Assembly (NCBI GenBank): GCA_963747695.1
Contig: CAVVFV010000012.1
Coordinates: 26,659-90,658, forward strand
From: Candidatus Falkowbacteria bacterium
Lineage (GTDB): Bacteria; Patescibacteriota; Patescibacteriia; Patescibacteriales; WJLG01
DNA: 64,000 nt
Direction: 5' to 3'
Part shown: in pieces, positions 1-63,142 of the stretch
Layout of the letters: each line of letters opens with the position of its first letter
How positions within the stretch are numbered: the stretch's first letter is position 1
Translations under genes and position numbers: made by a program
The notes under the pieces: model-generated
Database searches by the model: none
What the model saw: only the letters and a program-made list of their open reading frames with translations
What the model was told of the DNA's origin: nothing

Positions 1-804
1 GACGATTGCCCTCAGGCGCTTAGCGACAACACCAAGGCGATTGCCTGGGGCGCGGGCAACAGCCTATTCTACGAGCAGCAATATCTGACCAATGGATTAA
101 CTTGTTTTGACCGCCTGCCGTTTGAGGATCAGCAAAAATTAAAGGATAATATGCTGCTGTATCTTGGTTGGCTGCCGGTGGATAAGTTTTTCGCTTTTGC
201 CGAGGTCAAAGCCAATGTCAGTGTGATGCTGGCCAGTTTTGATAAGATTTATTATCCGCAGGCCGAGGAAGATTTTGCCGCTCTAGCCAAAAAGTATCCG
301 ACGATCAGCATTATTTATCGCGATTGGGCGGACTTTGAATTGGCCAAGGGGGATTTTAGCCGGGCCATCGCGATCAGTAATCAGGGTTTAGGGACGTTGC
401 CGCTCAAGGAAATGGATCAACGGGGTTATTTCACTCATCGGCCGGTGATTGAATCCTGGCAGATCGATTTTTACGACATTATCGGCGATGCCTATGCAGG
501 CGAGCATGACTGGAATAACGCTTTGAGCTATTACGAAAACGGCGTCAAGCTCAATCCTTATTATCTTCCGGCCTATGGAAAGATTGCGGCGGTCTATGCG
601 GCGGAAAAGGATTGGGACAAGGCGATATGGTATAATAATAAGGCGTACCGGCTTAGCCCGAGTGACTATTCCTGGCCGCTCGCTATCGGGCATTTGGAAA
701 CCGAGAAGGGCGACAAAAAAACAGCCATTGATTATTTTAATCAAGTTTTGCAGTTGAATCCGGATAATAAGGATGCGCAGAGCGGCATTGCCAGCCTGCG
801 GTAG
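1..804 (+). CDS. TPR-repeat protein (5' end outside window; frame 1 open from base 1)
   Basis: Open frame from position 1 with no stop; TPR-like repeats (AYGEHDWNNALSYYENGVKLNP, AYGKIAAVYAAEKDWDKAIWYNNKAYRL); stop TAG 802-804 lies inside repeat family A. Confidence 0.6.
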   Translation, partial: DDCPQALSDNTKAIAWGAGNSLFYEQQYLTNGLTCFDRLPFEDQQKLKDNMLLYLGWLPVDKFFAFAEVKANVSVMLASFDKIYYPQAEEDFAALAKKYPTISIIYRDWADFELAKGDFSRAIAISNQGLGTLPLKEMDQRGYFTHRPVIESWQIDFYDIIGDAYAGEHDWNNALSYYENGVKLNPYYLPAYGKIAAVYAAEKDWDKAIWYNNKAYRLSPSDYSWPLAIGHLETEKGDKKTAIDYFNQVLQLNPDNKDAQSGIASLR

Positions 805-857
805 GAACGCAACACTTTGCGTTCTGATTGCGGGAAAGCAAGGTATTGCGTTCCTAT
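799..857. repeat. Repeat family A locus 1 (GTAGGAACGCAA..TTGCGTTCCTAC hairpin units, inverted pair)
   Basis: cggtaggaacgcaacactttgcgttc ... gcaaggtattgcgttcctat; same motif at 25115, 28599, 47678, 60233. Confidence 0.8.
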
Positions 858-5804: not shown

Positions 5805-5883
5805 TTTTAAATAAAGGCGTTATATGATAAAATGTAATATAAATCAGTAATTATATTATACCATAAAAATTAAGATTGTTTAA

Positions 5884-5964
5884 TTGTTATATTGTCATAT
5901 TGCTATATTGTTAAAATGTATTGAATTGTTGTCTAGCAATATAACAATATGACAATATGGCAAT
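5884..5964. repeat. Repeat family B locus 1 (TTGTCATATTGCTATATTGTTA inverted pair)
   Basis: attgttatattgtcatattgctatattgtta ...spacer... tagcaatataacaatatgacaatatggcaat in divergent fba/gpmI spacer. Confidence 0.8.
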
Positions 5965-5978
5965 TTTAACGATAATGA

Positions 5979-7607
5979 TTGAAGTATCTTTTGTTTATGA
6001 CTGATATTAAGAAGAAAAAACCCATTGTTCTGGTAATCTTGGACGGCTGGGGTGAATGGGATATCGAGAAGGGCAACCCGATCGTGAAGTCCAAATTGCC
6101 GCTGATCGATAAATTAAACTCCCACTATCCCAAAACTTATCTGCAGGCGTCGGGCATGGCAGTTGGTTTGCCTTGGGGCGTTAGAGGCAATTCGGAAGTC
6201 GGCCACCAGACCATCGGTTCGGGCCAGATCGTCTTTCAGTTTTTGCCGACAATTTCCACGGCGATCACCGAAGGATCTTTTTTCAAGAACGAGGCGATCC
6301 TCGGCGCTTTTGACTGGGCGAAAAAAAATAATTCCAATCTGCACGTCCTGGGATTGCTTTCTGATGGATCAGTCCATTCCCACATCGAACATCTGTTCGC
6401 GCTTTTGGAGATGGCCAAGAACCGGGAAGTCAAAGAAGTTTATATCCATGCCGTGACCGATGGGCGTGACACGCACCCGCAAAGCGCTAAGCGATTTATT
6501 GAGCAGCTGGAAAATAAAATTAAAGAAATCGGCATCGGGAAAATTGCCACGCTAAGCGGCCGCTATTTCACCATGGATCGGAATAACAATTGGGACAGAG
6601 TGGAGAAAGCCTTCCTGGCAATCACCTCAGGCATCGGCATTCGAGAAAAAAATCCTCACCAGGCGGTGGATAACCAGTACGCCCGGAATATTTTTGATGA
6701 ATATTTGGAACCGGTCGTTTTAGAAGGGGATAACGGCGAACCGGTCGCGCTGATCAAGGATAACGACGCCGTGATTTGTTTCAACTTCCGCAAGGACCGT
6801 TCCCGCCAGATCACCAAGGCTTTCGTGCTGCCTAGTTTTAAAGAATTCAAACAAGCCAAGCCGCCGGCCAATCTCAAATATGTCTGCTTCGCGCCTTACG
6901 AAGAAGGACTTCCGGTTGACGTGGCTTTTCACGAGCAGCAGATCACTGTTCGTTTGGGTGAAATATTGGCCAAGAATTGGAAAAGGCAATTGCGCATTTC
7001 CGAAACGGAAAAATACGCGCACGTCACTTATTTTTTCAACGGCGGATTGGAAGAGCCGTATTTTTACGAGGACCGGATTTTGATCCCCTCCAAACGCGTG
7101 ACCACTTATGCGGATGCGCCGGAAATGAGCGCTACGGAAATCACCGATAAATTGCTGGAAGCGATGGAAAAAAATAATTATGATTTTATTTTGGTTAATT
7201 ATGCCAATTCCGATATGGTCGGCCACACGGGAAATTATCCGGCGGCCGTCAAAGCCCTGGAACACGTGGACGGTTGTCTGGCTCGATTGATTGAAGCCGT
7301 ATTTGCCAAAGGCGGAGAATTGATCATCACCGCCGATCACGGCAATGTCGAAGAGATGTTGAATATCTATACCGGCGAGCCGGACACCCAGCATTCCAAA
7401 AATGTGGTGCCCTGCTGGTATGTCAGCCCGGACAGCTGGATTGAAAGCTCGGAAAAACCCAAGAAGATCGAAGCCGGCGGTCTGCTGGTCGATCTGGCCC
7501 CGACCGTTCTGGATCTTCTCGGTTTTGAAAAACATCCGGCGATGGTCGGCTCAAGTTTGATCCGGCAATTCAAAAAGATGATGCCGGAAGAGGAAGAGGA
7601 AGAATGA
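5979..7607 (+). CDS. gpmI: 2,3-bisphosphoglycerate-independent phosphoglycerate mutase (iPGM)
   Basis: ILDGWG...RGNSEVGHQTIGSG N-terminal phosphatase-domain motifs, 542 aa. Confidence 0.9.
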   Translation: MKYLLFMTDIKKKKPIVLVILDGWGEWDIEKGNPIVKSKLPLIDKLNSHYPKTYLQASGMAVGLPWGVRGNSEVGHQTIGSGQIVFQFLPTISTAITEGSFFKNEAILGAFDWAKKNNSNLHVLGLLSDGSVHSHIEHLFALLEMAKNREVKEVYIHAVTDGRDTHPQSAKRFIEQLENKIKEIGIGKIATLSGRYFTMDRNNNWDRVEKAFLAITSGIGIREKNPHQAVDNQYARNIFDEYLEPVVLEGDNGEPVALIKDNDAVICFNFRKDRSRQITKAFVLPSFKEFKQAKPPANLKYVCFAPYEEGLPVDVAFHEQQITVRLGEILAKNWKRQLRISETEKYAHVTYFFNGGLEEPYFYEDRILIPSKRVTTYADAPEMSATEITDKLLEAMEKNNYDFILVNYANSDMVGHTGNYPAAVKALEHVDGCLARLIEAVFAKGGELIITADHGNVEEMLNIYTGEPDTQHSKNVVPCWYVSPDSWIESSEKPKKIEAGGLLVDLAPTVLDLLGFEKHPAMVGSSLIRQFKKMMPEEEEEE

Positions 7608-7610
7608 TTT

Positions 7611-7722
7611 TATTGCTATATTGTCATATTGTTATATTGATGCGCAACGATTTTAATCGATTAAGTTGTTTAATTCCGTTGCATAACAATATAACAATTT
7701 AGCAATATAATAATATGATAAT
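7611..7722. repeat. Repeat family B locus 2
   Basis: tattgctatattgtcatattgttatattg ...gcgcaacg..cgttgc... caatataacaatttagcaatataataat. Confidence 0.75.
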
Positions 7723-7735
7723 TAAACAATAAAAA

Positions 7736-7773: not shown

Positions 7774-7950
7774 TTATTCCTCCACAAATATCGCTTCCAC
7801 CGGGCACTGGTCGGCAGCGGACATCGCACAGTCGTGATTGGCGCCGATGACGGTTGATTTTCCCATCTCATCAAGCTTAAAAGTATCGGGACAGACTTCG
7901 GTGCAGCGGCCGCAGCCGATGCATTTTTCTCGGTCAACTTTGATAAGCAT
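7774..7950 (-). CDS. Ferredoxin, single 4Fe-4S/3Fe-4S cluster type (58 aa; missed by ORF track, <60 aa)
   Basis: Translated by hand: MLIKVDREKCIGCGRCTEVCPDTFKLDEMGKSTVIGANHDCAMSAADQCPVEAIFVEE; CxxCxxC...CP motif. Confidence 0.75.
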   Translation of the reverse strand: MLIKVDREKCIGCGRCTEVCPDTFKLDEMGKSTVIGANHDCAMSAADQCPVEAIFVEE

Positions 7951-7979
7951 AAGATTGTTGATTAATTTTTTCTAGAAAA

Positions 7980-8156
7980 TTATTCGCTAATCGTGATGGC
8001 CGATACCGGGCATTGGTCGGCGGCTGACTGGGCGCAATCCGGATTGGCGCCGATGACGGTGGATTTGCCCATCTCGTCTAATTTAAAAGTATCCGGGCAA
8101 ACTTCGGTGCAACGGCCGCAGCCGATGCAAGTATCGCGGTCAATGTTGATGGTCAT
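7980..8156 (-). CDS. Ferredoxin paralog (58 aa), tandem duplicate
   Basis: MTININRDTCIGCGRCTEVCPDTFKLDEMGKSTVIGANPDCAQSAADQCPVSAITISE; ~75% identical to downstream copy. Confidence 0.75.
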   Translation of the reverse strand: MTINIDRDTCIGCGRCTEVCPDTFKLDEMGKSTVIGANPDCAQSAADQCPVSAITISE

Positions 8157-8346
8157 AATTTGTTGATTGGTTAATTTGTTAATTAGGTGATTGGTTTTAA
8201 TTATAGCATATCTTTTTTGTAGTATGTAGTAAGTAGTAGGCAGTATGGTTTTTGATAAAAAATTGATCGGTTGACAAAGTAATTTGATCGTGGTAATTTA
8301 TAATGTTCTTTTAAAAATCATAACATTAACCGAAAAGAGGTAAAAA

Positions 8347-8730: not shown

Positions 8731-9007
8731 TTCGATATACCATACTACATACTGCATACTACATCGATGCTCTTGACGAATTTTTTATATATGTTATTAT
8801 TGAATCAATCAAATAAAGCCATAGACAGTAGGCACAAACATAAGACCTACCGAGGCAAAAACATAGCTTAATCAATAAGCTTTTTGCAGTCTGTGGTTTC
8901 GGCCAGAGATTTTTTGTTTATAATGACAAATTACAAATTAGGAATTACAAATTTAGAAGATAAAATAATTTGTAATCCGTAATTTTTAATTTGTAATTGA
9001 TAAGAAT

Positions 9008-9535: not shown

Positions 9536-9541
9536 AATATA

Positions 9542-9648
9542 ATGCGAATACTACAAATTGTTCGCGAATACTACGAATAGATTTAACGAATTTAATTCGA
9601 TAAATAGTTCGCGGTATTCGCGAAAAATTCGCTGTATTCGCATCATGG
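9542..9648. repeat. Repeat family C locus 2 (inverted orientation relative to locus 1), inserted between rplJ and rplL
   Basis: atgcgaatactacaaattgttcgcgaatactacgaatag...cgcggtattcgcgaaaaattcgctgtattcgcatcatgg. Confidence 0.8.
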
Positions 9649-10189: not shown

Positions 10190-10443
10190 TATAGCGCGCA
10201 TTGGAAAATTTTGGATCAGACGCGCAGCGTGGAAACCGTGCAAAATTGCGTTGTCTGAGGAGGCGCCGCGCCGACGAGTATAGCAATTTTGCTAGGTTTC
10301 ATAGCGGAGCGTCCCAAAATTTGTCCAGCGCGCAGTTTTTTGCGCCACTTTTTTTAAAAAAAGTGGCAAAATACAGAATTAATAATGTTGGGAATGTACC
10401 CACCCGCCTCGCCGGGCTCGGCACCACTCCCGAGAGGGGATCC
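10190..10443 (+). ncRNA. Candidate structured ncRNA / complex repeat element, copy 1 (~255 nt; TATAAA-like box upstream, GC hairpin at 3' end)
   Basis: Homologous to 54220-54485 with compensatory substitutions in two helices; the 90-aa ORF across it is not conserved in copy 2. Confidence 0.4.
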
Positions 10444-14462: not shown

Positions 14463-14589
14463 TTTGTCATCCTGAGGCCCCTGGCCGAAGGATCTGATCC
14501 TTCCCGTGTAAAAAAAAGTTTGTTTTTAAGATAAATTTTGTGCGTCCTTGGAAGGAGCAGATCCTTCGCGCGGCGCTCAGGATGACAAA
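14463..14589. repeat. Repeat family K locus 1 (TTTGTCATCCTGAG...GAAGGATC / GATCCTTC...CTCAGGATGACAAA)
   Basis: Inverted arms at 14463-14494 and 14560-14589; relatives at 19925-20070 and 63091-63142. Confidence 0.8.
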
Positions 14590-14593
14590 ATAA

Positions 14594-16360: not shown

Positions 16361-16491
16361 AATGCTAATTAGTTATAATGCTAATTTTCGAATGATGCGA
16401 ATTTCGCGAATTCCCCTCTTGGGAGGGGTGCCGAGCCCGGCGAGGCGTGGTGGGTCATTCGTAGATTCGCATCATTCGTGAAATTAGCATT
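16361..16491. repeat. Family-C-like palindromic element with nested GC-rich hairpin module (16412-16454) identical to the 3' module of the 10190/54220 elements in reverse orientation
   Basis: aatgctaatt...gatgcgaatttcgcgaat TCCCCTCTTGGGAGGGGTGCCGAGCCCGGCGAGGCGTGGTGGGT cattcgtagattcgcatcattcgtgaaattagcatt. Confidence 0.7.
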
Positions 16492-17003: not shown

Positions 17004-17408
17004 TTGTCATTCCCGCGCAGGCGGGAATCCAGTAACCTTGTCATTCCCGCGAAGGCGGGAATCCAGAAAATATGAAGGAGGGGAAAAGTTATTACGTTTA
17101 TATTTTAGCCGGCAATAGAAACGGCACGCTTTACACGGGCATTACCAATAGTTTGATTAGAAGAATTCAAGAACATAAAACAAAATACTTTAAAGGTTTT
17201 ACGGAAAAATATGGAGTTGATAAGTTAGTGTATTATGAAATTTATGGCAGTCCGAACGATGCGATTCATCGGGAGAAATGTATTAAAAAATGGAATAGAG
17301 ATTGGAAATTAAATTTAATAGAAAAGAATAATCCAACTTGGAAAGATTTATCAGTAGATTTATATTAACGTTTTTAATCTGGATTCCCGCCTTCGCGGGA
17401 ATGACGAA
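17004..17408. mobile_element. TIR-bounded mini-element carrying a GIY-YIG nuclease gene, inserted between atpF and atpH
   Basis: Two direct copies of TTGTCATTCCCGCG(C/A)AGGCGGGAATCCAG at 17004-17031 and 17038-17066; perfect inverted copy CTGGATTCCCGCCTTCGCGGGAATGACGAA at 17379-17408. Confidence 0.6.
17072..17368 (+). CDS. GIY-YIG nuclease family protein (YhbQ/UPF0213-like, 98 aa)
   Basis: SYYVYIL..GTLYTGITNSLIRRIQEH GIY-YIG core; low GC. Confidence 0.8.
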   Translation: MKEGKSYYVYILAGNRNGTLYTGITNSLIRRIQEHKTKYFKGFTEKYGVDKLVYYEIYGSPNDAIHREKCIKKWNRDWKLNLIEKNNPTWKDLSVDLY

Positions 17409-18121: not shown

Positions 18122-18245
18122 GAATTTCTCCTAGGAAAAAGTTTATTGAAAAGGACGTTAGTTATTATCAAAATATCATATCATATTTTGTATATAATGT
18201 CAATAAGATTGAGATATAACCCAATAAAAAAGGCTTAAAATGTAT

Positions 18246-18320
18246 AATTAGTTCATTGGTCGATTAGTTAATTAGTTTTGTAGACTAAGTGACTAATCAA
18301 CTAATTAACTAATCAACTAA
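18246..18320. repeat. Repeat family E locus 1 (GATTAGTTAATTAGTT / AACTAATTAACTAATC inverted pair) with TATAAT boxes upstream of atpA
   Basis: Perfect 16-bp inverted arms; relatives at 44070-44190 and 37088-37121. Confidence 0.75.
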
Positions 18321-18326
18321 AAACAT

Positions 18327-19862
18327 ATGAGTAATACTAAAGATTTCATCATTGAAGAATTGAGAAAACGGATCGACGGTTTTAAATCCGAAGCCGGCGA
18401 AAAGACTTTCGGCCGCGTGATTTCCGTCGGCGACGGCATTGCCCGCGTATCCGGCTTAGGCGACGCGATGATGTCGGAAATGTTGGAATTCAAATCCGCT
18501 GCCGGTTCAAAGTTCGGCGTGGTTTTGAATCTTGAAGAGGACTCGGTCGGCGCGATTATTCTTGATGATACGGAAGGAATCAAGGAAGGGGATGAAGTCG
18601 TGGCTTTGAAGCGCATTTTGGAAGTTCCGGTTTCGGAAGCGATCATCGGCCGCGTTTTGAATCCGTTGGGTAAAGCTCTGGATGGCAAAGAAGAAATCAA
18701 AACAACTAAATTTTATCCGGTGGAAAAAGTCGCTCCGGGCGTTATCACCCGTGAATCCGTGAAAAAGCCGTTGCAGACCGGCATTAAAGCTATCGACGCG
18801 ATGATCCCGATCGGCCGCGGCCAGCGCGAACTAATCATTGGCGATCGTCAGATCGGTAAGACTGCTATCGCTATTGACACTATCATTAACCAGAAGGGCA
18901 AGAACGTTAAATGTATTTATGTTGCAATCGGTCAGAAGGAATCGAAGATCGCCGGCATCGTTGCCAAATTGAAAGAAGCAGGCGCGATGGAATATACCAC
19001 CGTTATTTTGGCGGGCGCTTCGGACCCAGCTTCTCTCTTATATATCGCTCCGTTTGCCGGTTCGGCTATGGCGGAATATTTCTTGGATAAAGGCGAGGAT
19101 GTTTTGATCGTTTATGATGACTTGACCAAGCACGCCGCGGCTTATCGCGAACTTTCTCTTTTGTTAAGAAGACCTCCGGGACGCGAGGCTTATCCGGGCG
19201 ACGTTTTTTATCTCCATTCTCGTTTATTGGAACGTGCTTGCAAATTGAACAAGGATTTTGGCGGCGGTTCCATTACCGCTTTGCCGGTTATTGAAACTCA
19301 GTCCGGCGACGTGTCCGCTTACATTCCGACCAATGTTATTTCCATTACCGACGGCCAGATTTATCTGGTTCCGGATTTATTTTATCAGGGCAATCGTCCG
19401 GCCGTGGATGCCGGTATTTCCGTTTCCCGTGTCGGTTCAGCCGCGCAGATCAAGGCGATGAAAAAAGTGGCCGGCAAGATGAGGTTGGAAGTGGCGCAAT
19501 ATCGCGAGCTGGCGGCTTTCGCCCAGTTCGGTTCGGATTTGGATGAAGATACAAAAAGAAAATTGGAACGCGGCAAGCGCATCGTGGAAATCTTGAAGCA
19601 AGGCCAGTATGTCCCGATGCCCGTGGAAGAGCAGGTGGCGATTTTCTTTGCCGTGACCAATGGCTTGATGGATAATGTGCCGGTGGAAAAGATCGTTGAA
19701 TTTGAACCGAAGATGGTTGAATATGTGAAGGCCCGCGGCGCAGATGTGTTGAAGGCGATCAAGACATCCGGTGAATTGACTGATGATACGAATGCAAAGT
19801 TGAAGAAGTTGATAGAGGATTTTAAGGACACATTAGAATATGTAGGGAAGTCGGGTATATAA
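18327..19862 (+). CDS. atpA: F0F1 ATP synthase subunit alpha
   Basis: P-loop [13 protein letters not shown] and alpha-specific motifs; 511 aa. Confidence 0.95.
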
Positions 19863-19915
19863 TGCGAATACTACGAATTGTACGCGAATACAACGAACAT
19901 TTATTTACGAAAGTT
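19862..19915. repeat. Partial family C copy
   Basis: aatgcgaatactacgaattgtacgcgaatacaacgaac. Confidence 0.6.
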
Positions 19916-19924
19916 TTTTAAATT

Positions 19925-20070
19925 TTTGTCATCCTGAGCGCCGCGCGAAGGATCTATTGTCCGAGAAGCTTTCAATTTATAGATAAAAAATTTTGATTGA
20001 ATAAAGTCGGCGTTCCTTCAATATAGATCCTTCGTCAGGGACTCCCTGGCCGGGCAGGCAGGATGACAAA
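19925..20070. repeat. Repeat family K locus 2
   Basis: tttgtcatcctgagcgccgcgcgaaggatc ... gatccttcgtcagggactccctggccgggcaggcaggatgacaaa. Confidence 0.8.

Positions 20071-21606: not shown

Positions 21607-21607
<1 letters not shown>
20609..21607 (+). CDS. atpG: F0F1 ATP synthase subunit gamma (long form, 332 aa)
   Basis: N-terminal KEIQRRIKSIGNTKKITKAMEMVSAAKMRK and C-terminal helix signature. Confidence 0.9.
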
Positions 21608-23416
<1,809 letters not shown>

Positions 23417-24287: not shown

Positions 24288-25112
24288 ATGAATATCCATC
24301 AATTTATAAGTTTGATCGGCAAAAAAAAGCAGACCATCGCGTCGATGCTGATTATTTTTTTAGCCGTGGCGGTAATTTTTTCCGCCGTGCAGCCGTTCAA
24401 ATATGACTCCAACATCCAGTTACTGACTATCATCAGTTTCAAGCAGGATGTTGATCCATATACGGCTTCCCGCTCCAATGAATATCTGAGCGGCTTGTTG
24501 GCGAACATCGTTTCTTCCGGATCTTTTTTCCAGCAGATCGAATCGTCCGGGTTTAACATTGATAAAAATTATTTTGCCGGCAGCGCCAAGCAACAGATGA
24601 AAAAATGGGACAAGACCGTCAAGGCGAAAAGCATCGCCGACACCGGTATAATTTCCATCGATGTTTATCACACTGATCGGGCGCAAGCCGAAGAGATCGC
24701 CAAAGCGGTCGCTTACACTTTGCAGACCACCAATTCGCAATACCACGGTTTCGGCGATGGCGTGCAGATCAAGATCATCGATCAGCCGATCACTTCTAAT
24801 TATCCGGTTCAGCCGAATTTACTTTTGAATTTGGGTTTGGCCGTGGCTTTCGCCTTGATCTTTTCCCTCTGCTATATTTATTTGTTCCCGGAAGAAAGAT
24901 ATGATTTGCGCCTGTGGCCGAAAAAAGCTAAGAATCAGGAATTTTCTTTTGCCGAGGAGCCGGCGGATGAAACTGCCAATGTTTTCTCTCCGGTAGTTGC
25001 TCAAGATGCGGAAACCGATTCTCCGCAAGATCAAGAACAAGATTTGACCAATGGCTACAATCCGGCTGATTATCAAGCTAACGGCAATATGAATAATATT
25101 TTGAAGAGATAA
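24288..25112 (+). CDS. Wzz/YveK-like chain-length determinant (polysaccharide co-polymerase) protein
   Basis: N- and C-terminal TM helices flanking a soluble domain; acidic tail. Confidence 0.45.
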   Translation: MNIHQFISLIGKKKQTIASMLIIFLAVAVIFSAVQPFKYDSNIQLLTIISFKQDVDPYTASRSNEYLSGLLANIVSSGSFFQQIESSGFNIDKNYFAGSAKQQMKKWDKTVKAKSIADTGIISIDVYHTDRAQAEEIAKAVAYTLQTTNSQYHGFGDGVQIKIIDQPITSNYPVQPNLLLNLGLAVAFALIFSLCYIYLFPEERYDLRLWPKKAKNQEFSFAEEPADETANVFSPVVAQDAETDSPQDQEQDLTNGYNPADYQANGNMNNILKR

Positions 25113-25114
25113 TT

Positions 25115-25176
25115 TCGTAGGAACGCAATATTTTGCGTTCCCGTTCGCCAGAACGCAAAATATTGCGCTCCTACGA
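25115..25176. repeat. Repeat family A locus 2 (inverted pair)
   Basis: tcgtaggaacgcaatattttgcgttc ... gaacgcaaaatattgcgctcctacga. Confidence 0.8.
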
Positions 25177-27741: not shown

Positions 27742-28533
27742 ATGAAATCGATTTGGTTGATTGGTGTTTTTTTGTTGGCGGCGAATTTGTTCGCCAAAGA
27801 AAGCGGCAAGATCAATCTCGTTGAGCTTGACGTGGGCTATTTGATGAGTACCGCGGATTCGACCATCAGTTTCCGCTTTGCCGATGACCGTACTTGTACG
27901 ATCAGCACCAATTTTTTAAGGCAAGAGCTGAAAAAATCGACCAAGGTAGTCAAATTCAATGTCGATCGCGGTATTAAGTTCGTCGGATTCGATACGATAT
28001 CAGTCAAGCCGGCCGGTTGTGATCGGGCAAAAGTCGATTCAGTAGCCTGGGAAAGAGCCTGGGAAAAATCCGAAGCAGCGGCGCCGGATCGGGTTGTTCA
28101 ATGTTTTTCTCCCGAGCCTGATTATGCCTGGTTCACAGCTCCTTCGCCGGTGGCTGATTCTGCCGCGCCCGTGGCTGACACTGCTCTGCCATTGCACGGC
28201 GTTACCTTGAGCGGTATTTATTTCGTGGCGGTCGCTCTGGTGATGGCGGTCGATGGAAGCGCTCCGGCGGTTAAGTTCGAAACGAAGTGGGACCGGCATC
28301 CGATGACCAAGACAGGAGATTATTACGTCTTCAAGACTGGTCGACGGTTTATTCTACCGATGGCAAGCTATTGCTTCGATATCGGCGGCGGCGAATATCT
28401 GCCTCATGTTTTGAAAAAGGGCCGAGGCGGGGCCTACATTACTGCGGTCGATTCGCTGGCGATTATCGGAAACGGCGGACAAAACGGCTACAATTTCTAT
28501 ACCAAACCGATCAAAACCGATCGGTTCAAGTAG
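27742..28533 (+). CDS. Secreted hypothetical protein, paralog of 27131 (C-terminal YCFDIGG..PH domain)
   Basis: Signal peptide; TGDYYVFKTGRRFILPMASYCFDIGGGEYLPHVL aligns with TGKYYTVKGKPCKAGFTMDYCFDIGGDHFIPHAL. Confidence 0.45.
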   Translation: MKSIWLIGVFLLAANLFAKESGKINLVELDVGYLMSTADSTISFRFADDRTCTISTNFLRQELKKSTKVVKFNVDRGIKFVGFDTISVKPAGCDRAKVDSVAWERAWEKSEAAAPDRVVQCFSPEPDYAWFTAPSPVADSAAPVADTALPLHGVTLSGIYFVAVALVMAVDGSAPAVKFETKWDRHPMTKTGDYYVFKTGRRFILPMASYCFDIGGGEYLPHVLKKGRGGAYITAVDSLAIIGNGGQNGYNFYTKPIKTDRFK

Positions 28534-28598: not shown

Positions 28599-28665
28599 GG
28601 TAGGAACGCAATACCTTGCGTTCTGATTCACGGCATTTATCGTAGGAACGCAATACCTTGCGTTC
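28599..28665. repeat. Repeat family A locus 3 (two direct units)
   Basis: ggtaggaacgcaataccttgcgttc ... cgtaggaacgcaataccttgcgttc. Confidence 0.8.
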
Positions 28666-28695: not shown

Positions 28696-28724
28696 TTGAC
28701 AAATATCATTATTTTTGCTATAAT
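28696..28724 (+). promoter_or_regulatory. Consensus sigma70-like promoter (TTGACA-17-TATAAT) upstream of radical SAM gene
   Basis: ttgaca aatatcattatttttgc tataat. Confidence 0.6.
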
Positions 28725-36974: not shown

Positions 36975-37121
36975 TATTTTTCAAGTTCTTATAAATTTCT
37001 CATCTGTCCGCGGACAGGTGGGAAATAATAAGAAAATTGAATAATAGTTACTTAGTTGTCTTGCTGGCCAAGATAAATCGAATCCCAAACTAATTAACCA
37101 ATTAACTAATTCACTAATATA

Positions 37122-41063: not shown

Positions 41064-41420
41064 ATGATTTTGTCTATCAATACGATTGGTCAACCGGGGA
41101 TCGAGATCGGCCTGAAAGAAGCGGATAAATTTATCGCGCAAAAAAAGATTGAACCTGGACGAGTGCAGGCGGAAAAATTATTAGCGGCGGTCGAGGCTGT
41201 TTTAAAAATGAAAAAGATCAAGCTGAAGGATATCGAAGCGATCGAGGTAGAAAATAGGGGAGGCAGTTTCACTTCTCTGCGCATCGGCGTGGCCGTGGCT
41301 AATGCCCTCGGGTTTGCCTTGGGAATACCGGTCAAGGGAACGGCCGGACCGGCCAAGATGGTCGAACAGATCAGTATTGTTGAGCCGATGTATGATCGGG
41401 AGCCTGATATCGGGATTTAG
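41064..41420 (+). CDS. TsaB-like (inactive Kae1/YeaZ-type) N-terminal domain protein, short form
   Basis: ILSINTIGQPGIEIGL...GGSFTSLRIGVAVANALGFALGIPV resembles TsaB N-terminus. Confidence 0.5.
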   Translation: MILSINTIGQPGIEIGLKEADKFIAQKKIEPGRVQAEKLLAAVEAVLKMKKIKLKDIEAIEVENRGGSFTSLRIGVAVANALGFALGIPVKGTAGPAKMVEQISIVEPMYDREPDIGI

Positions 41421-41525
41421 TATTTCGTATTTGGTATATCGTATTTCGTATATTTTTTAAAATTTAGGTAATTTGTTAAATTTTTTGGGCGAAATACCAA
41501 ATACGAGATACGAAATACGAATCGC
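41419..41525. repeat. Repeat family D locus 1 (TATTTCGTATTTGGTAT-based inverted repeat)
   Basis: tagtatttcgtatttggtatatcgtatttcgtata ... gaaataccaaatacgagatacgaaatacgaatcgc. Confidence 0.8.
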
Positions 41526-42329: not shown

Positions 42330-42344
42330 AAGATCTGTGAATAT

Positions 42345-42463
42345 AATCCGAATGCTACGAATGTCAATCCGAATCTACAAATGACATCCGAATTATCCGA
42401 ATAGGTTTATTATCCATTCGGATGATATTCGTAGATTCGCCGAAAATTCGTAGATTCGAATTA
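42345..42463. repeat. Family-C-related inverted repeat (CCGAATCTACAAAT / ATTCGTAGATTCG) between mraZ and rsmH
   Basis: aatccgaatgctacgaatgtcaatccgaatctacaaatgacatccgaatta...ccattcggatgatattcgtagattcgccgaaaattcgtagattcgaatta. Confidence 0.7.
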
Positions 42464-44069: not shown

Positions 44070-44190
44070 CTTAATTAGTCGATTAGTTAATTGGTTAATT
44101 AGTTTTATTGCAAAAAAGTTTCGGCTAATTTTATTATCGAAGCCTAATTTTACTAAAACTAAGCACCTAATTAACTAAGCAACTAATGAC
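44070..44190. repeat. Repeat family E locus 2
   Basis: cttaattagtcgattagttaattggttaattagtttt ... aactaagcacctaattaactaagcaactaatgac. Confidence 0.75.
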
Positions 44191-46302: not shown

Positions 46303-46381
46303 GCAGAAGTAAGAAGTATGAAGTTAGAAGTAAGAAGTTTTTATAAGATTTCTTACTTCTAACTTTTTACTTCTAACTTTC
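46303..46381. repeat. Repeat family I (AGAAGTAAGAAGT / ACTTCTTACTTCT palindrome)
   Basis: gcagaagtaagaagtatgaagttagaagtaagaagt...atttcttacttctaactttttacttctaactttc. Confidence 0.8.
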
Positions 46382-46387
46382 TAATCT

Positions 46388-47683
46388 ATGTTTAAAAAAA
46401 TAATATTATTAAAATTGAAGTGGCTGGCTAAAATGATTTTAGCTAAATACAAGCCAAAAATAGTCGGCATTACCGGCAGCGTAGGAAAGACCAGCACCAA
46501 GGATGCGGTTTTTTGCGTGCTCAAAACCAAATTCCGCGTCCGGGCGAGCATTAAGAATTATAACAATGAATTCGGTTTGCCGTTGTCGGTGATCGGGTCT
46601 GATTCGCCCGGGAAAAATTTTTTCGGTTGGCTGGCGGTTTTTTGGCAAGCTTATTGGCTGATCCTTTTTTTCGCCAAGGATTATCCCGAAGTGTTGATTT
46701 TGGAAATGGGCGTCGATAAGGTCGGCGATATGGATTATCTGACCAGCATCGTCAAGTGCGATGTGGGGGTGATCACGGGGATCGGCGAAGCGCATTTGGA
46801 AGCTTTTGGTTCGGTTGATAAGATCCAACTGGAAAAAGGAAAGCTGTTGAAAAAATTGGCCAAGAATGGCTGGGCAATCCTCAATTTTGACGATGAGAAG
46901 ACTAAGGCGCTCGCCGCCGAAAGCAAAGTCCGGGTTTTGGGTTATGGATTCAATCCCGGCGCCGAAGTCAGCGGCAGTAATCTGCAATTCAAATTCGAAG
47001 AGTCGAGGAACTTGGATAATTTGCTCGGTCTGACTTTTAAAGTTAGTTATGAAGGTTCGATGGTTCCGGTGGTCTTACCCGAAGTCATCGGCGGCGGCGC
47101 AGTTTACGCGGCGCTGGCGGCGATCGCGGTCGGACTGACCTTCAAGATCAATCTGGTGGAGATTGCGGCGGCCTTGCAGAAATTCGTTTCACCCAAAGGT
47201 CGAATGAAATTGATCGACGGGATCAAGCATACTTTATTGATTGACGATTCTTATAATTCTTCGCCGCAATCTTCGCTCGCGGCGATTGATTTCATCAAGC
47301 GGATCGAAACCGACCAGCCCTTCCGCAAGATCGCCGTTATGGGCGATATGCTGGAATTAGGTACTTACTCTGAAGCCGGACATCGCGAAGTCGGCCGTGC
47401 CGTAGCTGTTGCCAAATTCGATTTGCTCGTCACGGTAGGCGAGCGGGCGAGAGAGATTAGCCATGGCGCCAAGGCGGCCGGGTTGGCTGATGATCAAATA
47501 TTCAGTTTTTCTCATAACGCCGAAGCCGGTTTGTTCGTCCAGGATCGTTTAAAAGCCGGCGACCTGGTCTTGATCAAAGGATCGCAAGGCGCCCGGATGG
47601 AACAGGTCGTCAAGGAACTGATGGCAAATCCGCTCGAGGCCGGCATTCTGCTGGTTCGCCAGGGAGCCGAGTGGAGCGCGTAG
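46388..47683 (+). CDS. murF: UDP-N-acetylmuramoyl-tripeptide--D-alanyl-D-alanine ligase
   Basis: Mur ligase P-loop GITGSVGKTSTKD; Mur ligase central/C-terminal domains. Confidence 0.85.
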   Translation: MFKKIILLKLKWLAKMILAKYKPKIVGITGSVGKTSTKDAVFCVLKTKFRVRASIKNYNNEFGLPLSVIGSDSPGKNFFGWLAVFWQAYWLILFFAKDYPEVLILEMGVDKVGDMDYLTSIVKCDVGVITGIGEAHLEAFGSVDKIQLEKGKLLKKLAKNGWAILNFDDEKTKALAAESKVRVLGYGFNPGAEVSGSNLQFKFEESRNLDNLLGLTFKVSYEGSMVPVVLPEVIGGGAVYAALAAIAVGLTFKINLVEIAAALQKFVSPKGRMKLIDGIKHTLLIDDSYNSSPQSSLAAIDFIKRIETDQPFRKIAVMGDMLELGTYSEAGHREVGRAVAVAKFDLLVTVGERAREISHGAKAAGLADDQIFSFSHNAEAGLFVQDRLKAGDLVLIKGSQGARMEQVVKELMANPLEAGILLVRQGAEWSA

Positions 47684-47743
47684 GAACGCAATATTTTGCG
47701 TTCAAAATAAATCGCAGGAACGCAAGATATTGCGTTCCTACAG
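47678..47743. repeat. Repeat family A locus 4; murF stop codon TAG is part of the repeat
   Basis: gcgtaggaacgcaatattttgcgttc ... gcaggaacgcaagatattgcgttcctacag. Confidence 0.8.
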
Positions 47744-47783
47744 TTTTATATGTCACAAAATTGAAGTAAAACCGTTAATATAT

Positions 47784-50780: not shown

Positions 50781-51503
50781 ATGAGAGGAATAATTCTTTC
50801 CGGAGGAGCGGGAACGCGTCTCCGACCATTGACCTATATCACTTCAAAACAACTTTTGCCGGTTTATAACAAACCGATGATTTATTATCCGCTTAATACT
50901 TTGCTTAAAGCGGGGATCAAGGAAATATTGATCATCGTGGCGCCGGAGCGGGCTGGCGATTATTCCAATCTGCTTGGTTCGGGCAAAGAATTCGGCGCGA
51001 AATTCACATATGAGGTCCAGGATGAGCCAAGGGGTTTGGCAGACGCGCTGATCATCGGCGATAATTTCATCGATCAGGAAAATATCGCCTTGATTTTAGG
51101 CGATAATATTTTTGAAGATGATTTTACCGACGAGATTAAGAAATTCAAAAGCGGCGGAAAAATTTTCGCCAAGCAAGTCAAAGATCCGGAACGTTTCGGC
51201 GTGGTGGAATTTGCCGGCAGCAAGGCCAAGCGAATCGTGGAAAAACCCAAGGAACCGGTCAGCGATTATGCTGTTACCGGATTGTACCTCTATGATTATC
51301 GCGCCGTTCAAGTTGCCAAGGACCTCAAGCCTTCGCCTCGGGGCGAATTGGAAATCACCGACGTGAATAATTGGTATTTGGAGAAAGGGGAGTTGGAAGT
51401 GGCCAAGATCAGCGGCGCCTGGCTGGATGCCGGAACCTTTGACAGCTTGCTGGAAGCGCAGAATCTGGCCAAGGAAAAATTGGCCGGAAAAATGGTGATA
51501 TAA
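50781..51503 (+). CDS. Sugar-phosphate nucleotidyltransferase, RmlA-like (glucose-1-phosphate thymidylyltransferase short form)
   Basis: MRGIILSGGAGTRLRPLTYITSKQLLPVYNKPMIYYPL. Confidence 0.75.
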   Translation: MRGIILSGGAGTRLRPLTYITSKQLLPVYNKPMIYYPLNTLLKAGIKEILIIVAPERAGDYSNLLGSGKEFGAKFTYEVQDEPRGLADALIIGDNFIDQENIALILGDNIFEDDFTDEIKKFKSGGKIFAKQVKDPERFGVVEFAGSKAKRIVEKPKEPVSDYAVTGLYLYDYRAVQVAKDLKPSPRGELEITDVNNWYLEKGELEVAKISGAWLDAGTFDSLLEAQNLAKEKLAGKMVI

Positions 51504-51611
51504 TTGTCATATTGTCATATTGTCATATTGCTATATTGTTACGCTACGAAATTAATTAGCTGTGTATTGAAAACGTTGCGCAACAATATAACAATATAGC
51601 AATATAACAAT
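51504..51611. repeat. Repeat family B locus 3 (three tandem TTGTCATA units in left arm)
   Basis: attgtcatattgtcatattgtcatattgctatattgtta ...ttgcgcaac... caatataacaatatagcaatataacaat. Confidence 0.8.
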
Positions 51612-51618
51612 AAATCCG

Positions 51619-54219: not shown

Positions 54220-54485
54220 ATTGGGAAATTTCCGTAATCACGCAGCGTAGAAGCCGTGCAAAAGTTGCGTTGTCCGAAGCCCGCTTCATTATTATAAAAA
54301 TTATAAATAAAGGCGGGCAAGAATAGCAATTTTGCTAGGCTTCCTAGCGGAGTGATAGGAAATTTTCCCTGCGCGCAGTTTTTTGCGCTACTTTTTCTAA
54401 AAAAAGTAGCAAAGATTTTGAAATAATGTCAGGAATATACCCACCCCGCCTCGCCGGGCTCGGCACCCCTCCCAAGAGGGGATTT
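54220..54485 (+). ncRNA. Candidate structured ncRNA / complex repeat element, copy 2 (~265 nt; TATAAT at 54198-54203; 3' GC hairpin + T-run)
   Basis: Homolog of 10190-10443; CCCCTCccaaGAGGGGattttt 3' end abuts recR stop. Confidence 0.4.
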
Positions 54486-55084: not shown

Positions 55085-55090
55085 TAAAGT

Positions 55091-55206
55091 ATGCGAATAT
55101 CGCGAATTAATCGCGAATACTGCAAAAAATACGATATAATGACTCGAAGGAAATATGTTATTCGCGGTTTTCGTGGCATTCGCGTTTATTCGTAGATTCG
55201 CATCAT
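55091..55206. repeat. Repeat family C locus 3, fills recR-ybaB spacer
   Basis: atgcgaatatcgcgaattaatcgcgaatactgc...ttattcgcggttttcgtggcattcgcgtttattcgtagattcgcatcatt. Confidence 0.75.
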
Positions 55207-55483: not shown

Positions 55484-55637
55484 ATTAGGTACTTAGTTGA
55501 TTAGGTACTTAGGCCTACCTATTCAAGCTCATTTATTTTATAATCTTTACGCATTAAATTATGAGTTCGTTTATTAAAATAGAAGAAATTATCCATACTA
55601 CTACTAAGTACCTAATATACTAAGTGCCTAATTAACC
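55484..55637. repeat. Repeat family F locus 2
   Basis: aattaggtacttagttgattaggtacttaggcctacc ... ctactaagtacctaatatactaagtgcctaattaacc. Confidence 0.8.
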
Positions 55638-59267: not shown

Positions 59268-60224
59268 GTGAATTATATGAATGAGAAAAAGTTGATTTCT
59301 TTGGTTGTGCCGATCTATAACGAAGAAAAAAATATCAACCTTTTTTATCAAGCTTTGTCCGGAATTTTAAATAGTTCGGCGGCGAATTTTGATTGGGAAT
59401 TGATCCTGGTCAACGATGGTTCAACCGATCAAGGCGCGGTCTTGATCGAGCAATTGGCGCGGACCGATAAGCGGATAAAATATTTGGAATTCTCCCGCAA
59501 CTTCGGCAAAGAGATCGCGACGACCGCCGGTTTGAACAATGCCCGCGGCGCGGCGGCGATTATGATCGATGCCGACCTGCAGCATCCGGTCGAACTGATT
59601 CCGGAATTGATCGCCAAATGGCAGAGCGGCGCGGAAGTCGTGATCGGCGTGCGCAAAAGTAATCGGGGCGAGGGGATAGTTAAGAAACTCGGTTCGGGAC
59701 TTTTTTATCAGATCATCAATAATATCGCGGAGATAAAAATCATTCCCCAAGCCACCGATTTTCGGCTGATCGATCGCGCCGTGATCGATGAGTTCAACCG
59801 CTTCAGCGAAAATAACCGGATGACCCGGGCCTTGATCGATTGGCTCGGTTTTAAGCGTGATTATATTTATTTTGACGCCCGCGAACGGACCGACGGCCAG
59901 GCCAAGTATGGTTTTTGGAAACTTTTTCATCTGGCGGTTTCCAGTTTTGTCTCCTTAAGCCTGTTGCCTTTGAAATTGGCCGGTTATCTGGGCATCTTGA
60001 TCGTTTTTTTCTCCGGCATTTTAGGAATATATATCCTGTTCGGCAAATATGTTTTTCATCTGGCTAACCCTTCGAGTTTTTCCGGCACAGCCCAGCTCGG
60101 TATCTTGATCATCTTTCTGGTGGGCATAATTTTAATCTCCCTGGGCTTGATCGCTTTGTACATCGCCAACATCCACGGCGAAGTCACGCACCGGCCGCTT
60201 TATGTGATCAGAAAAAGAAAATAA
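59268..60224 (+). CDS. GT2 polyprenol-phosphate glycosyltransferase (DPM1/GtrB/ArnC-like) with C-terminal TM helices
   Basis: LISLVVPIYNEEKNI...LILVNDGSTDQ...IMIDADLQHP. Confidence 0.75.
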   Translation: MNYMNEKKLISLVVPIYNEEKNINLFYQALSGILNSSAANFDWELILVNDGSTDQGAVLIEQLARTDKRIKYLEFSRNFGKEIATTAGLNNARGAAAIMIDADLQHPVELIPELIAKWQSGAEVVIGVRKSNRGEGIVKKLGSGLFYQIINNIAEIKIIPQATDFRLIDRAVIDEFNRFSENNRMTRALIDWLGFKRDYIYFDARERTDGQAKYGFWKLFHLAVSSFVSLSLLPLKLAGYLGILIVFFSGILGIYILFGKYVFHLANPSSFSGTAQLGILIIFLVGIILISLGLIALYIANIHGEVTHRPLYVIRKRK

Positions 60225-60232
60225 AATTAGAT

Positions 60233-60290
60233 CGTAGGAACGCAATATTTTGCGTTCAAATCATTAGAACGCAAAGTATTGCGTTCCTAC
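60233..60290. repeat. Repeat family A locus 5 (inverted pair) immediately upstream of next gene
   Basis: cgtaggaacgcaatattttgcgttc ... gaacgcaaagtattgcgttcctac. Confidence 0.8.
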
Positions 60291-63090: not shown

Positions 63091-63142
63091 TTTTTTGTCA
63101 TCCCGAGTGCCGCGCGAGGGATCTATTTCCGAGGACAGGGAT
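63091..63142. repeat. Partial family K copy
   Basis: ttttttgtcatcccgagtgccgcgcgagggatctatttccgaggacagggat. Confidence 0.6.

Follow-up and report, generated by a model that had tools for sequence, protein, structure and literature searches.

Family A, a short repeat, occurs at five loci in the window, by which we mean the whole 64-kb stretch of DNA analysed here. A search with the tag-free core GAACGCAA-N4-TTGCGTTC, allowing up to three mismatches, recovered 10 units, and these form the complete set; all of them were intergenic or touched only a stop codon. This copy count covers the 64-kb window of the genome. When GTAGGAACGCAA was searched in the window with up to two mismatches, 12 matches were obtained against 4.4 expected, and 12 was reached in 0 of 100 shuffles. 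An nhmmer profile made from the units detected no additional, more diverged copy in the window, its next matches having E > 0.5. The five loci, which a sequence-only reading of the same DNA had picked out, were real, and their positions lay within 1–2 nt of those claimed. At gathering thresholds, no Rfam family matched any of the five loci. A tRNA scan of the window found none. The single Rfam match in the window was an L10 leader at 8801–8924.

Each unit consisted of a GTAG tag, an 8-bp stem (GAACGCAA/TTGCGTTC) and a 4-nt loop. The stem was perfect in eight of the 10 units in the window and had one mismatch in the other two. In all 10 the tag stood on one side only, as GTAG in nine and as ATAG in one. 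The loop, read in tag orientation, was TAYY, and its sequence tracked the direction of the tag. With a one-sided tag and an orientation-linked loop, the unit is thus an asymmetric 24-mer and no simple palindrome. A 28-nt consensus with GTAG and CTAC on one hairpin, which had been proposed earlier, was absent as a single unit from the window, where each unit carried one tag. A single unit folded as single-stranded DNA with −8.4 kcal/mol (z −7.3), and the 8-bp stem and 4-nt loop bore out the claim of a hairpin per unit. Family A has the features of a canonical GTAG REP, namely a short stem-loop palindrome with an unpaired 5' GTAG foot on one side.

All five loci lay between co-directional genes of the plus strand. 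At the first locus, between genes for a TPR protein and a prepilin peptidase, both the core search and nhmmer located the unit GTAGGAACGCAACACTTTGCGTTC, with GTAG tag and hairpin, at 801–824 on the plus strand. It forms the left arm of an inverted pair, the right arm of which (834–857, minus strand) is a degenerate unit with an ATAG tag, read as CTAT on the plus strand, and one stem mismatch. The RNA of this pair (801–857) folded with −32.5 kcal/mol. The TPR-repeat gene (ORF 151–804, plus strand) stops at 802–804 with the TAG inside the GTAG tag of the left arm. The second locus, between genes for a GNVR-like protein and a LysM protein, contained a left arm at 25117–25140 (plus strand), starting 4 nt past the stop of ORF 24288–25112, and a right arm at 25151–25174 (minus strand) with one stem mismatch (GAGCGCAA). 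Pair 2 (25117–25174) folded with −38.1 kcal/mol as RNA and with −27 to −30 kcal/mol as single-stranded DNA of either strand. The third locus, between genes for an unknown protein and a radical-SAM protein, held a direct, head-to-tail pair of units on the plus strand (28600–28623 and 28642–28665), which began 66 nt past the stop of ORF 27742–28533. A sigma-70-like promoter of full consensus was present at 28696–28724, 3' of the direct pair.

The fourth locus lay between a murF-like Mur ligase gene (ORF 46388–47683) and a gene for an ECF sigma factor. Its left arm occupied 47680–47703 on the plus strand, and the TAG stop of the Mur ligase gene (47681–47683, plus strand) again stood inside the GTAG tag. 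The right arm (47714–47741, minus strand) had CTAC on its right and, on the inner side, GCAG as the vestige of a second tag. At the fifth locus, between two family-2 glycosyltransferase (GT2) genes, the left arm (60234–60257, plus strand) started 9 nt past the stop of the GT2 gene 59268–60224. The right arm (60267–60290, minus strand) ended 4 nt before 60295, where the ATG of the second GT2 gene is located, which places the ribosome-binding region of that gene inside the hairpin. Two listed ORFs, starting from TTG 828 and TTG 47730, began within the repeat, and their Pfam domains started past the ATG codons at 873 and 47784; these two TTG starts are artefacts.

The layout at the five loci was as had been claimed: units were inverted with GTAG outside at four loci and direct at one (28600–28665). 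The inverted pairs formed hairpins of 24–28 bp, with RNA folds of −32 to −40 kcal/mol (z −5.4 to −11.6) and single-stranded DNA folds of −27 to −30 kcal/mol for either strand. Bertels and Rainey, in 2011, are said to have described the REPIN as two inverted REPs with a short spacer, the pair being the replicating unit. This layout, with both units folding into one long hairpin, was found at four of the five window loci. The spacers of the four inverted pairs measured 9–14 nt and were unlike in both length and sequence, and we thus make no claim that the pairs were copied whole, as one unit.

The repeat was widespread beyond the window. The exact sequence GTAGGAACGCAA-N4-TTGCGTTC was found at 36 loci in a genome collection and at a minimum of 120 metagenome loci, and the 20-nt core was present in at least 156 other public contigs. 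A viral contig collection gave no exact match, so nothing points to carriage by phages. Of the 36 genome loci, none was orthologous to a window locus or came from the window's own genome. In the pooled set, 224 of 234 units carried the tag, and 36 of the 234 carried it on both sides as a ‘double foot’ (GTAG...CTAC). Neighbouring pooled units were inverted with tags outside in 35 cases, inverted with tags inside in 0 and direct in seven, with spacers of 7–45 nt. We then compared the stems of 241 units, taken from the window and the 156 loci with up to three mismatches. Among the 15 units with two stem changes, 13 had perfect Watson–Crick compensations and one more had a double wobble. Double changes were almost always compensatory, which indicates from the comparison of copies that the stem is kept by selection. 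Among single stem changes, six of 11 were G-T wobbles.

To the genes around the repeat we applied a regular expression (HUH...Y..NP) and then tblastn. A RAYT-like ORF of about 180–200 aa was found in 14 of the 156 loci fetched with the repeat, and every one of the 14 had family A inside it or within about 350 nt. The repeat was in or near RAYT genes far more often than expected by chance. For the proteins of three of these loci (L002, L008 and L020), the sole NCBIfam match was NF047646, ‘REP-associated tyrosine transposase’ (E about 4e-15 to 4e-17); the scores of 56–63 bits were below the curated equivalog cut-off of 80. Pfam Y1_Tnp matches to these proteins were weak and under threshold. Their sole PDB match was E. 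coli TnpA_REP (4ER8, E 0.006), in which HUH and WQPRF...YI.NP were aligned. Several of about 8000 homologues had been named ‘REP element-mobilizing transposase RayT’ by JGI. Judged by these sequence matches, the protein linked to family A elsewhere is an HUH/Tyr (Y1) enzyme of the TnpA_REP type.

Family A also lies in frame within the RAYT gene itself, where it is translated as VGTQN...FAFL; this was found at L002, L008, L020 and L165 and in 39 of the 120 best homologues. The in-frame insert often came with tandem 15-nt half-units (VGTQN x n), and many RAYT genes had a further insertion site before the HuH motif. A RAYT lineage with a compensatory stem variant carried that same variant in frame. 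At the corresponding positions, more distant RAYT homologues had repeats of other types (VETQNFASLQ, RDAKSCVST and VGTGQCPVPT). The TATT-loop variant of the window (VGTQY...) was seen in none of the 120 best homologues. Within the 64-kb window itself, the HUH...Y..NP expression, tblastn with three RAYTs and a Pfam search of 10 small repeat-flanked ORFs detected no RAYT, and a cognate enzyme in this organism is thus a putative one. The genome would carry such a RAYT outside the window, and the units would be mobile now or would once have been.

Classical bacterial MITEs, such as the Correia elements of Neisseria, originate from DDE insertion sequences and show target-site duplications. The sequence-only reading had called family A MITE-like, and there are resemblances: the repeat is small, non-coding and co-transcribed, its multiple copies are dispersed between genes, and its pairs have inverted-repeat ends with terminal symmetry (GTAGGAACGC...GCGTTCCTAC). 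However, the four inverted pairs had flanks of ctgcg/attga, tttc/gatg, gcgc/agtt and gatc/catt, with no direct repeat and hence no target-site duplication at any of them, indicating that family A is no classical MITE. Single units and direct pairs occurred too, and among the ORFs examined in the 156 loci no DDE transposase stood beside the repeat. The sole recurrently linked gene encoded the HUH/Tyr transposase, a single-strand enzyme and not a DDE one. The label therefore had to be dropped in its classical sense, and an origin from, or movement by, a DDE-type insertion sequence is extremely improbable.

We also considered a site for another DNA-binding protein, either an operator palindrome or the hairpin motif of the GIY-YIG nuclease family Ssn. 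SsnA is a GIY-YIG single-strand nuclease, and NTS/Ssn-related hairpin motifs have been described (Nat Commun 2025, PMC11893778). The core of family A is a perfect 8+8 palindrome, as an operator might be, and small GIY-YIG ORFs were common in the loci fetched with it. Like the NTS/Ssn motifs, the repeat is a tagged, oriented hairpin in many copies that flanks the gene of a small enzyme recognising single-stranded DNA. Moreover, positions 17004–17405 of the window are occupied by an Ssn-type cassette that has tagged hairpins of its own; these are a different repeat, with the CGTC-type tag and the small GIY-YIG flank of Ssn motifs. Unlike those motifs, which are CGTC- or TGTC-tagged and flank ssn, family A is tagged with GTAG, its enzyme is HUH/Tyr and not GIY-YIG, and no GIY-YIG ORF flanked it in the checked loci. 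The GIY-YIG ORF next to the repeat at L065 was an insertion splitting a RAYT gene. A GIY-YIG protein as the enzyme of family A was rejected on these grounds, the tag and neighbourhood being wrong and the L065 ORF being itself an insertion. An operator, for its part, would be expected upstream of regulated genes and not on stop codons, in frame in tRNA synthetase genes or as tail-facing pairs. A site for another protein is thus highly unlikely.

The GTAG foot with its hairpin, the REPIN-type pairing and the RAYT genes physically tied to the repeat in other genomes all uphold the earlier description of family A as REP-like. We consider it probable (about 0.8) that family A is a GTAG-tagged REP, arranged mostly in REPIN or ‘HH dimer’ pairs and spread by a RAYT (TnpA_REP).

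We then analysed the stop codons and gene 3' ends. The ORF ends agreed with the claim that both the TPR gene and murF stop at the TAG within GTAG. The murF-like protein ends in ...LLVRQGAEWSA, and 54 Mur ligase homologues shared a conserved ...LLVRQGxEW end followed by 1–4 variable residues. The window protein thus ends within the variable tail (...EWSA), indicating that the repeat's TAG has taken the place of the native stop to within 1–2 codons and alters the tail alone. The best named homologues of this Mur ligase, at 79% identity, came from ‘Patescibacteria group bacterium’ MAGs. Comparison of orthologous gene ends, a check suggested with the earlier reading, yielded three syntenic relatives (MurF 75–79% identical) in which the family A unit was absent between murF and the sigma gene. 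At the same spot, the three relatives had other, unrelated hairpin-forming repeats upstream of a conserved promoter-like motif. The absence from these relatives indicates that the element at murF is a lineage-specific arrival or replacement. As for the window's own organism, a Logan contig of run ERR11748453, the only second sample, was 100% identical over 8 kb, so there was no insertion polymorphism to see.

At the other window loci the repeat lay 4, 9 and 66 nt past a stop codon. Elsewhere, based on crude ORF calls, 91 pooled cases were adjacent to a gene 3' end; in 16 of them the tag supplied its TAG as the stop, and 40 were within 15 nt of the stop. Median distances in co-directional spacers were 25 nt on the stop side and 73 nt on the start side. 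The proposed enrichment at 3' ends showed a trend alone: of the clusters in these spacers, 35 lay closer to the stop of the upstream gene and 22 to the start of the downstream gene (p = 0.11). The preference for the stop side was non-significant. In the pooled sample from elsewhere, 69 of 183 clusters (about 38%) lay in frame inside ORFs. These ORFs encoded valyl- and leucyl-tRNA synthetases, PheS, MnmA, Dus and a Mur ligase, and had Pfam domains on both sides of the copy. The repeat is tolerated in frame in the essential genes among them (ValRS, LeuRS, PheS, MnmA and Mur ligase). Di Nocera et al. [quoted passage not shown] Stop donation, closeness to 3' ends and in-frame copies being already published for GTAG REPs, the finding for family A is real but ordinary.

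A gene-end position would also suit an RNA element evolved by the host, a terminator or mRNA stabiliser spread by selection with no transposase. The five loci are all transcribed from the strand of the upstream gene, their RNA folds are very stable, and the closeness to stops in those 40 of 91 cases and the six G-T wobbles among 11 single stem changes, which RNA tolerates, are consistent with it. In E. coli, REPs near stop codons affect translation, with ribosome stalling at distances of up to 15 nt (Liang et al., 2015, as summarised in PMC12306157). However, a terminator scan accepted only one of the five loci (locus 4, 47716–47739, with a T-rich tail) and none of the other four, and the suggestion that family A acts as a terminator therefore fails as a property of the family. 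The GTAG foot and the orientation-linked loop would be useless to a simple terminator, yet they are the features by which RAYTs recognise REPs. The excess of copies in and beside RAYT genes, the in-frame clusters and the non-significant stop-side preference also argue against a host RNA element, which fits a secondary role and leaves the origin and spread of the repeat unexplained. We regard it as unlikely to be the primary explanation.

For a GTAG REP spread by a RAYT, a mechanism can be drawn by homology from characterised REP systems. When the DNA becomes single-stranded, each unit would fold as a hairpin, and the RAYT (TnpA_REP, HUH-Tyr) would recognise both this hairpin and its GTAG foot. 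Cleavage of single-stranded REPs by TnpA_REP depends on GTAG in E. coli and S. maltophilia (PMC8266576). By cutting beside the unit and rejoining strands, the enzyme would copy a unit or a pair to new sites with no target-site duplication. The single strand GTAGGAACGCAATATTTTGCGTTC is a candidate substrate for the RAYT of this clade. Copies would persist where their cost is small, which in a gene-dense genome means the short gaps between genes. As the tag contains TAG, a copy that lands in the final codons of a gene in the right frame, or drifts onto them, would become the stop codon of that gene.

Effects of family A at the RNA level are possible as secondary ones. A pair transcribed with its upstream gene would give a very stable 3' hairpin, which may shield the mRNA from 3' exonucleases. 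E. coli REPs are the analogy for such an RNA-stability role, which is plausible for family A. By the same analogy, a hairpin within about 15 nt of a stop may slow terminating ribosomes. Pair 5 could possibly occlude the region around the start of the second GT2 gene (60295).

Most of the checkable hosts of family A were Patescibacteria, and it may be largely a Patescibacteria family. Host loci spanned 30–48% GC, and the 20-nt core was kept across this range in hosts whose housekeeping proteins were just 50–80% identical. MAG labels of many phyla hinted at horizontal transfer across phyla, a candidate explanation that was weakened when two labels were checked. The MnmA of the ‘Gammaproteobacteria’ MAG CAYPKD01 matched a Patescibacteria protein at 84% identity, and its next matches were from Parcubacteria and Falkowbacteria. 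A ‘Nanoarchaeia’ label stood on a bacterial MurF 75% identical to that of the window. Further labels were Bacteroidota, Bdellovibrionales and Ktedonobacteraceae; the check covered Gammaproteobacteria and Nanoarchaeia, and, both checked labels being doubtful, spread across phyla is not established.

More tentatively, a REPIN-RAYT system made up of family A and its RAYT clade may pervade the Patescibacteria (candidate phyla radiation), a possibility that we consider rather doubtful. If true, either the enzyme would have co-maintained the repeat over a very long time or transfer among lineages would have been frequent. Together with the other families of hairpin repeats that fill the spacers of this genome, it could also make structured repeats a main intergenic constituent in this group. 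To our knowledge, REPIN-RAYT systems are not expected in the ultra-small, gene-dense genomes of Patescibacteria. For annotation, family A explains odd gene ends, including stops in the repeat and the spurious TTG starts, as well as contig breaks in assemblies of the organism. For biochemistry, GTAGGAACGCAA-N4-TTGCGTTC could serve as a defined substrate, and P0001 and P0012 are among the candidate enzymes.

In comparison with known systems, family A shares with GTAG REPs and REPINs (E. coli REP/BIME, Pseudomonas REPINs and S. maltophilia SMAG/REPSm) the unpaired 5' GTAG foot and the short perfect hairpin. The closest match in anatomy is to S. maltophilia REPSm, in which GTAG precedes an 8-bp stem with a 3-nt loop, against 8 bp and 4 nt in family A (PMC8266576). 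Inverted pairs with GTAG outside, intergenic positions near the upstream 3' end, TAG stops and in-frame copies are shared as well (PMC3733652), and so is the linked HUH/Tyr transposase gene (PMC8266576), which for family A is found in other genomes. Unlike the known GTAG REPs, family A has as its host a Patescibacterium, with a small, gene-dense genome outside the surveys of 2013 and 2018, which found RAYTs mainly in larger genomes (PMC3733652, PMC6006769). A host from the candidate phyla radiation thus joins the range of REPs and RAYTs, which the surveyed literature ties mostly to larger genomes. In the literature searched, we found no paper linking REPs or RAYTs with Patescibacteria or the candidate phyla radiation. 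No record of the family A stem GAACGCAA turned up in the literature that could be searched, and the exact repeat matched unrelated primers alone. Family A opens no new question, since its mechanism, stop donation and in-frame copies are known from other REP families; new here are the stem sequence, relative to the searchable literature, and the Patescibacterium host.

Subclass 2.4 of TnpA_REP, as described by Quentin et al. (2018, PMC6006769), is patchily distributed and abundant in Cyanobacteria and Bacteroidetes; it has REPs of the double-foot kind, and its genes carry REPs inserted in frame between HuH and Tyr. The family A RAYT genes likewise carry the repeat in frame between the HuH and Tyr motifs, the 36 double-foot units mentioned above have the same form, and W-Q-R of the GTAG-contacting region is present in the family A RAYTs (WQPRF). 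Unlike subclass 2.4, family A has mostly Patescibacteria among its checkable hosts, and many of its RAYTs have the second insertion site ahead of HuH and the tandem 15-nt half-units. Judged by shared traits and not by the authors' profiles, these likenesses suggest that the family A RAYTs are a subclass 2.4 system.

Outside the window, the family A repeat, a REP hairpin tagged with GTAG, was found in frame within housekeeping genes, namely those for ValRS, LeuRS, PheS, MnmA, Dus and a Mur ligase. These intragenic copies, which comprised both single units and whole inverted pairs, were located in the public contigs L001 (606-633), L083 (2903-2930), L100 (1723-1750), L049 (2770-2797), L035 (6775-6802), L075 (2886-2943) and L078 (4570-4639). 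The peptides that they encode were VGTQNFAFL or of the CRNAKSCVPT type, and the site in ValRS was seen again in L055, L118 and L150. Some public MAGs, those with L001, L023 and L029 (DATJQC01) and with L035 (CAYPKD01), appear to carry a wrong taxonomic label. A bacterial MurF with 75% identity to that of the window bears the label 'Candidatus Nanoarchaeia archaeon', and the MnmA of an 'uncultured Gammaproteobacteria' MAG showed 84% identity to a Patescibacteria protein.

A GTCACAAA ... CGTTAAT motif a short way upstream of the gene for the ECF sigma factor was conserved between the window (47752-47779) and three syntenic relatives, L038 (11363-11392), L040 (11413-11441) and L042 (11432-11460). 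It was located immediately after the repeat pair and looks like an autoregulated ECF-type promoter.

Many intergenic spacers of the window were filled with short tandem arrays of 7-8-nt units (e.g. ACTAATTA, TATTGTCA, ATTTCGT and AGAAGTA), at 5875-5964, 7603-7731, 8156-8184, 18245-18320, 37088-37118, 41415-41521, 44071-44187, 46305-46384, 51503-51612 and 55485-55632. Downstream of each array lay an inverted copy of it, and the two form long A+T-rich hairpins. The orthologous spacer between murF and the sigma-factor gene carried a different array, CATAGAGC, in L040 (11296-11410) and an array of the ACTAATCA type in L042 (11340-11430); what is conserved is the arrangement, while the sequence turns over. 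To our knowledge, such paired inverted arrays of 7-8-nt units in spacers have not been described previously. A gene for a 119-aa '23S rRNA-intervening sequence protein' (21642-22001; Pfam PF05635) was also bracketed by heptamer arrays inverted relative to each other, with (AAATTAT)n on one side (21607-21639) and (AATTTAT)n on the other (21993-22024), and the gene together with its arrays (21607-22024) looks like an inserted cassette.

Further repeats were dispersed over the window, in which no tRNA genes were found along its 64 kb. A third tagged hairpin family, TTTTGTCATCCTGAGCGCCGCGCGAAGGATCT, carried a TGTC tag and had three copies that were 91-100% alike (14559-14590, 19924-19955 and 63093-63124), two of them inverted with 5.3 kb between them; a similar repeat flanked a GIY-YIG ORF in L098. 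Copies of a 47-49-nt repeat, AATTCCCCTCTTGGGAGGGGTGCCGAGCCCGGCGAGGCGTGGTGGGT, occurred in both orientations at 10392-10440, 16409-16460 and 54439-54485 and were 86-96% alike; this repeat was also present in L024 and L029, which belong to other Patescibacteria MAGs. Composite repeats of GCGAATAC-like units (1745-1876, 9537-9648, 19857-19897, 42341-42393 and 55086-55201) formed inverted pairs of 41-56 nt with 89-91% complementarity across distant loci. Two direct repeats were longer. Upstream of the L10 leader region, 154 nt recurred at a distance of 206 nt with 81% identity (7799-7952 and 8005-8158), and elsewhere 101 nt recurred 44 kb away with 82% identity (10270-10370 and 54313-54413).

In contig L065 (225-1075), an inserted GIY-YIG ORF of 86 aa (698-958) appears to split the gene of a REP-associated tyrosine transposase (RAYT). 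The RAYT N-terminus (MKIYKDKKQYRYKGYD) lay upstream of the insert, directly after a double-foot family A unit, with tags on both sides of one hairpin; the rest of the gene lay downstream and contained an in-frame REP variant with a longer stem (NRRNAPRRVPTG).

Between atpF and atpH, the window itself contained an inserted, stand-alone GIY-YIG ORF of 98 aa (17072-17368). Upstream of it (17004-17069), TTGTCATTCCCGCGmAGGCGGGAATCCAG was present in two direct copies, and an inverted copy, reading CGTCATTCCC... on the minus strand, was located downstream (17378-17405); the 28-nt arms around the ORF showed 100% complementarity. GIY-YIG homologues in L013, L035, L058, L067 and L098 also had inverted tagged hairpins on either side, with differing stems. 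The repeats at 17004-17405 agreed with the consensus of NTS, the tagged hairpin repeat of Neisseria (CGTCATTCCCGCGMAVGCGGGAATCYRG; PMC11893778), and the cassette had the same layout, NTS-ssnA-NTS, as in the family of Ssn single-strand nucleases (PMC11893778).
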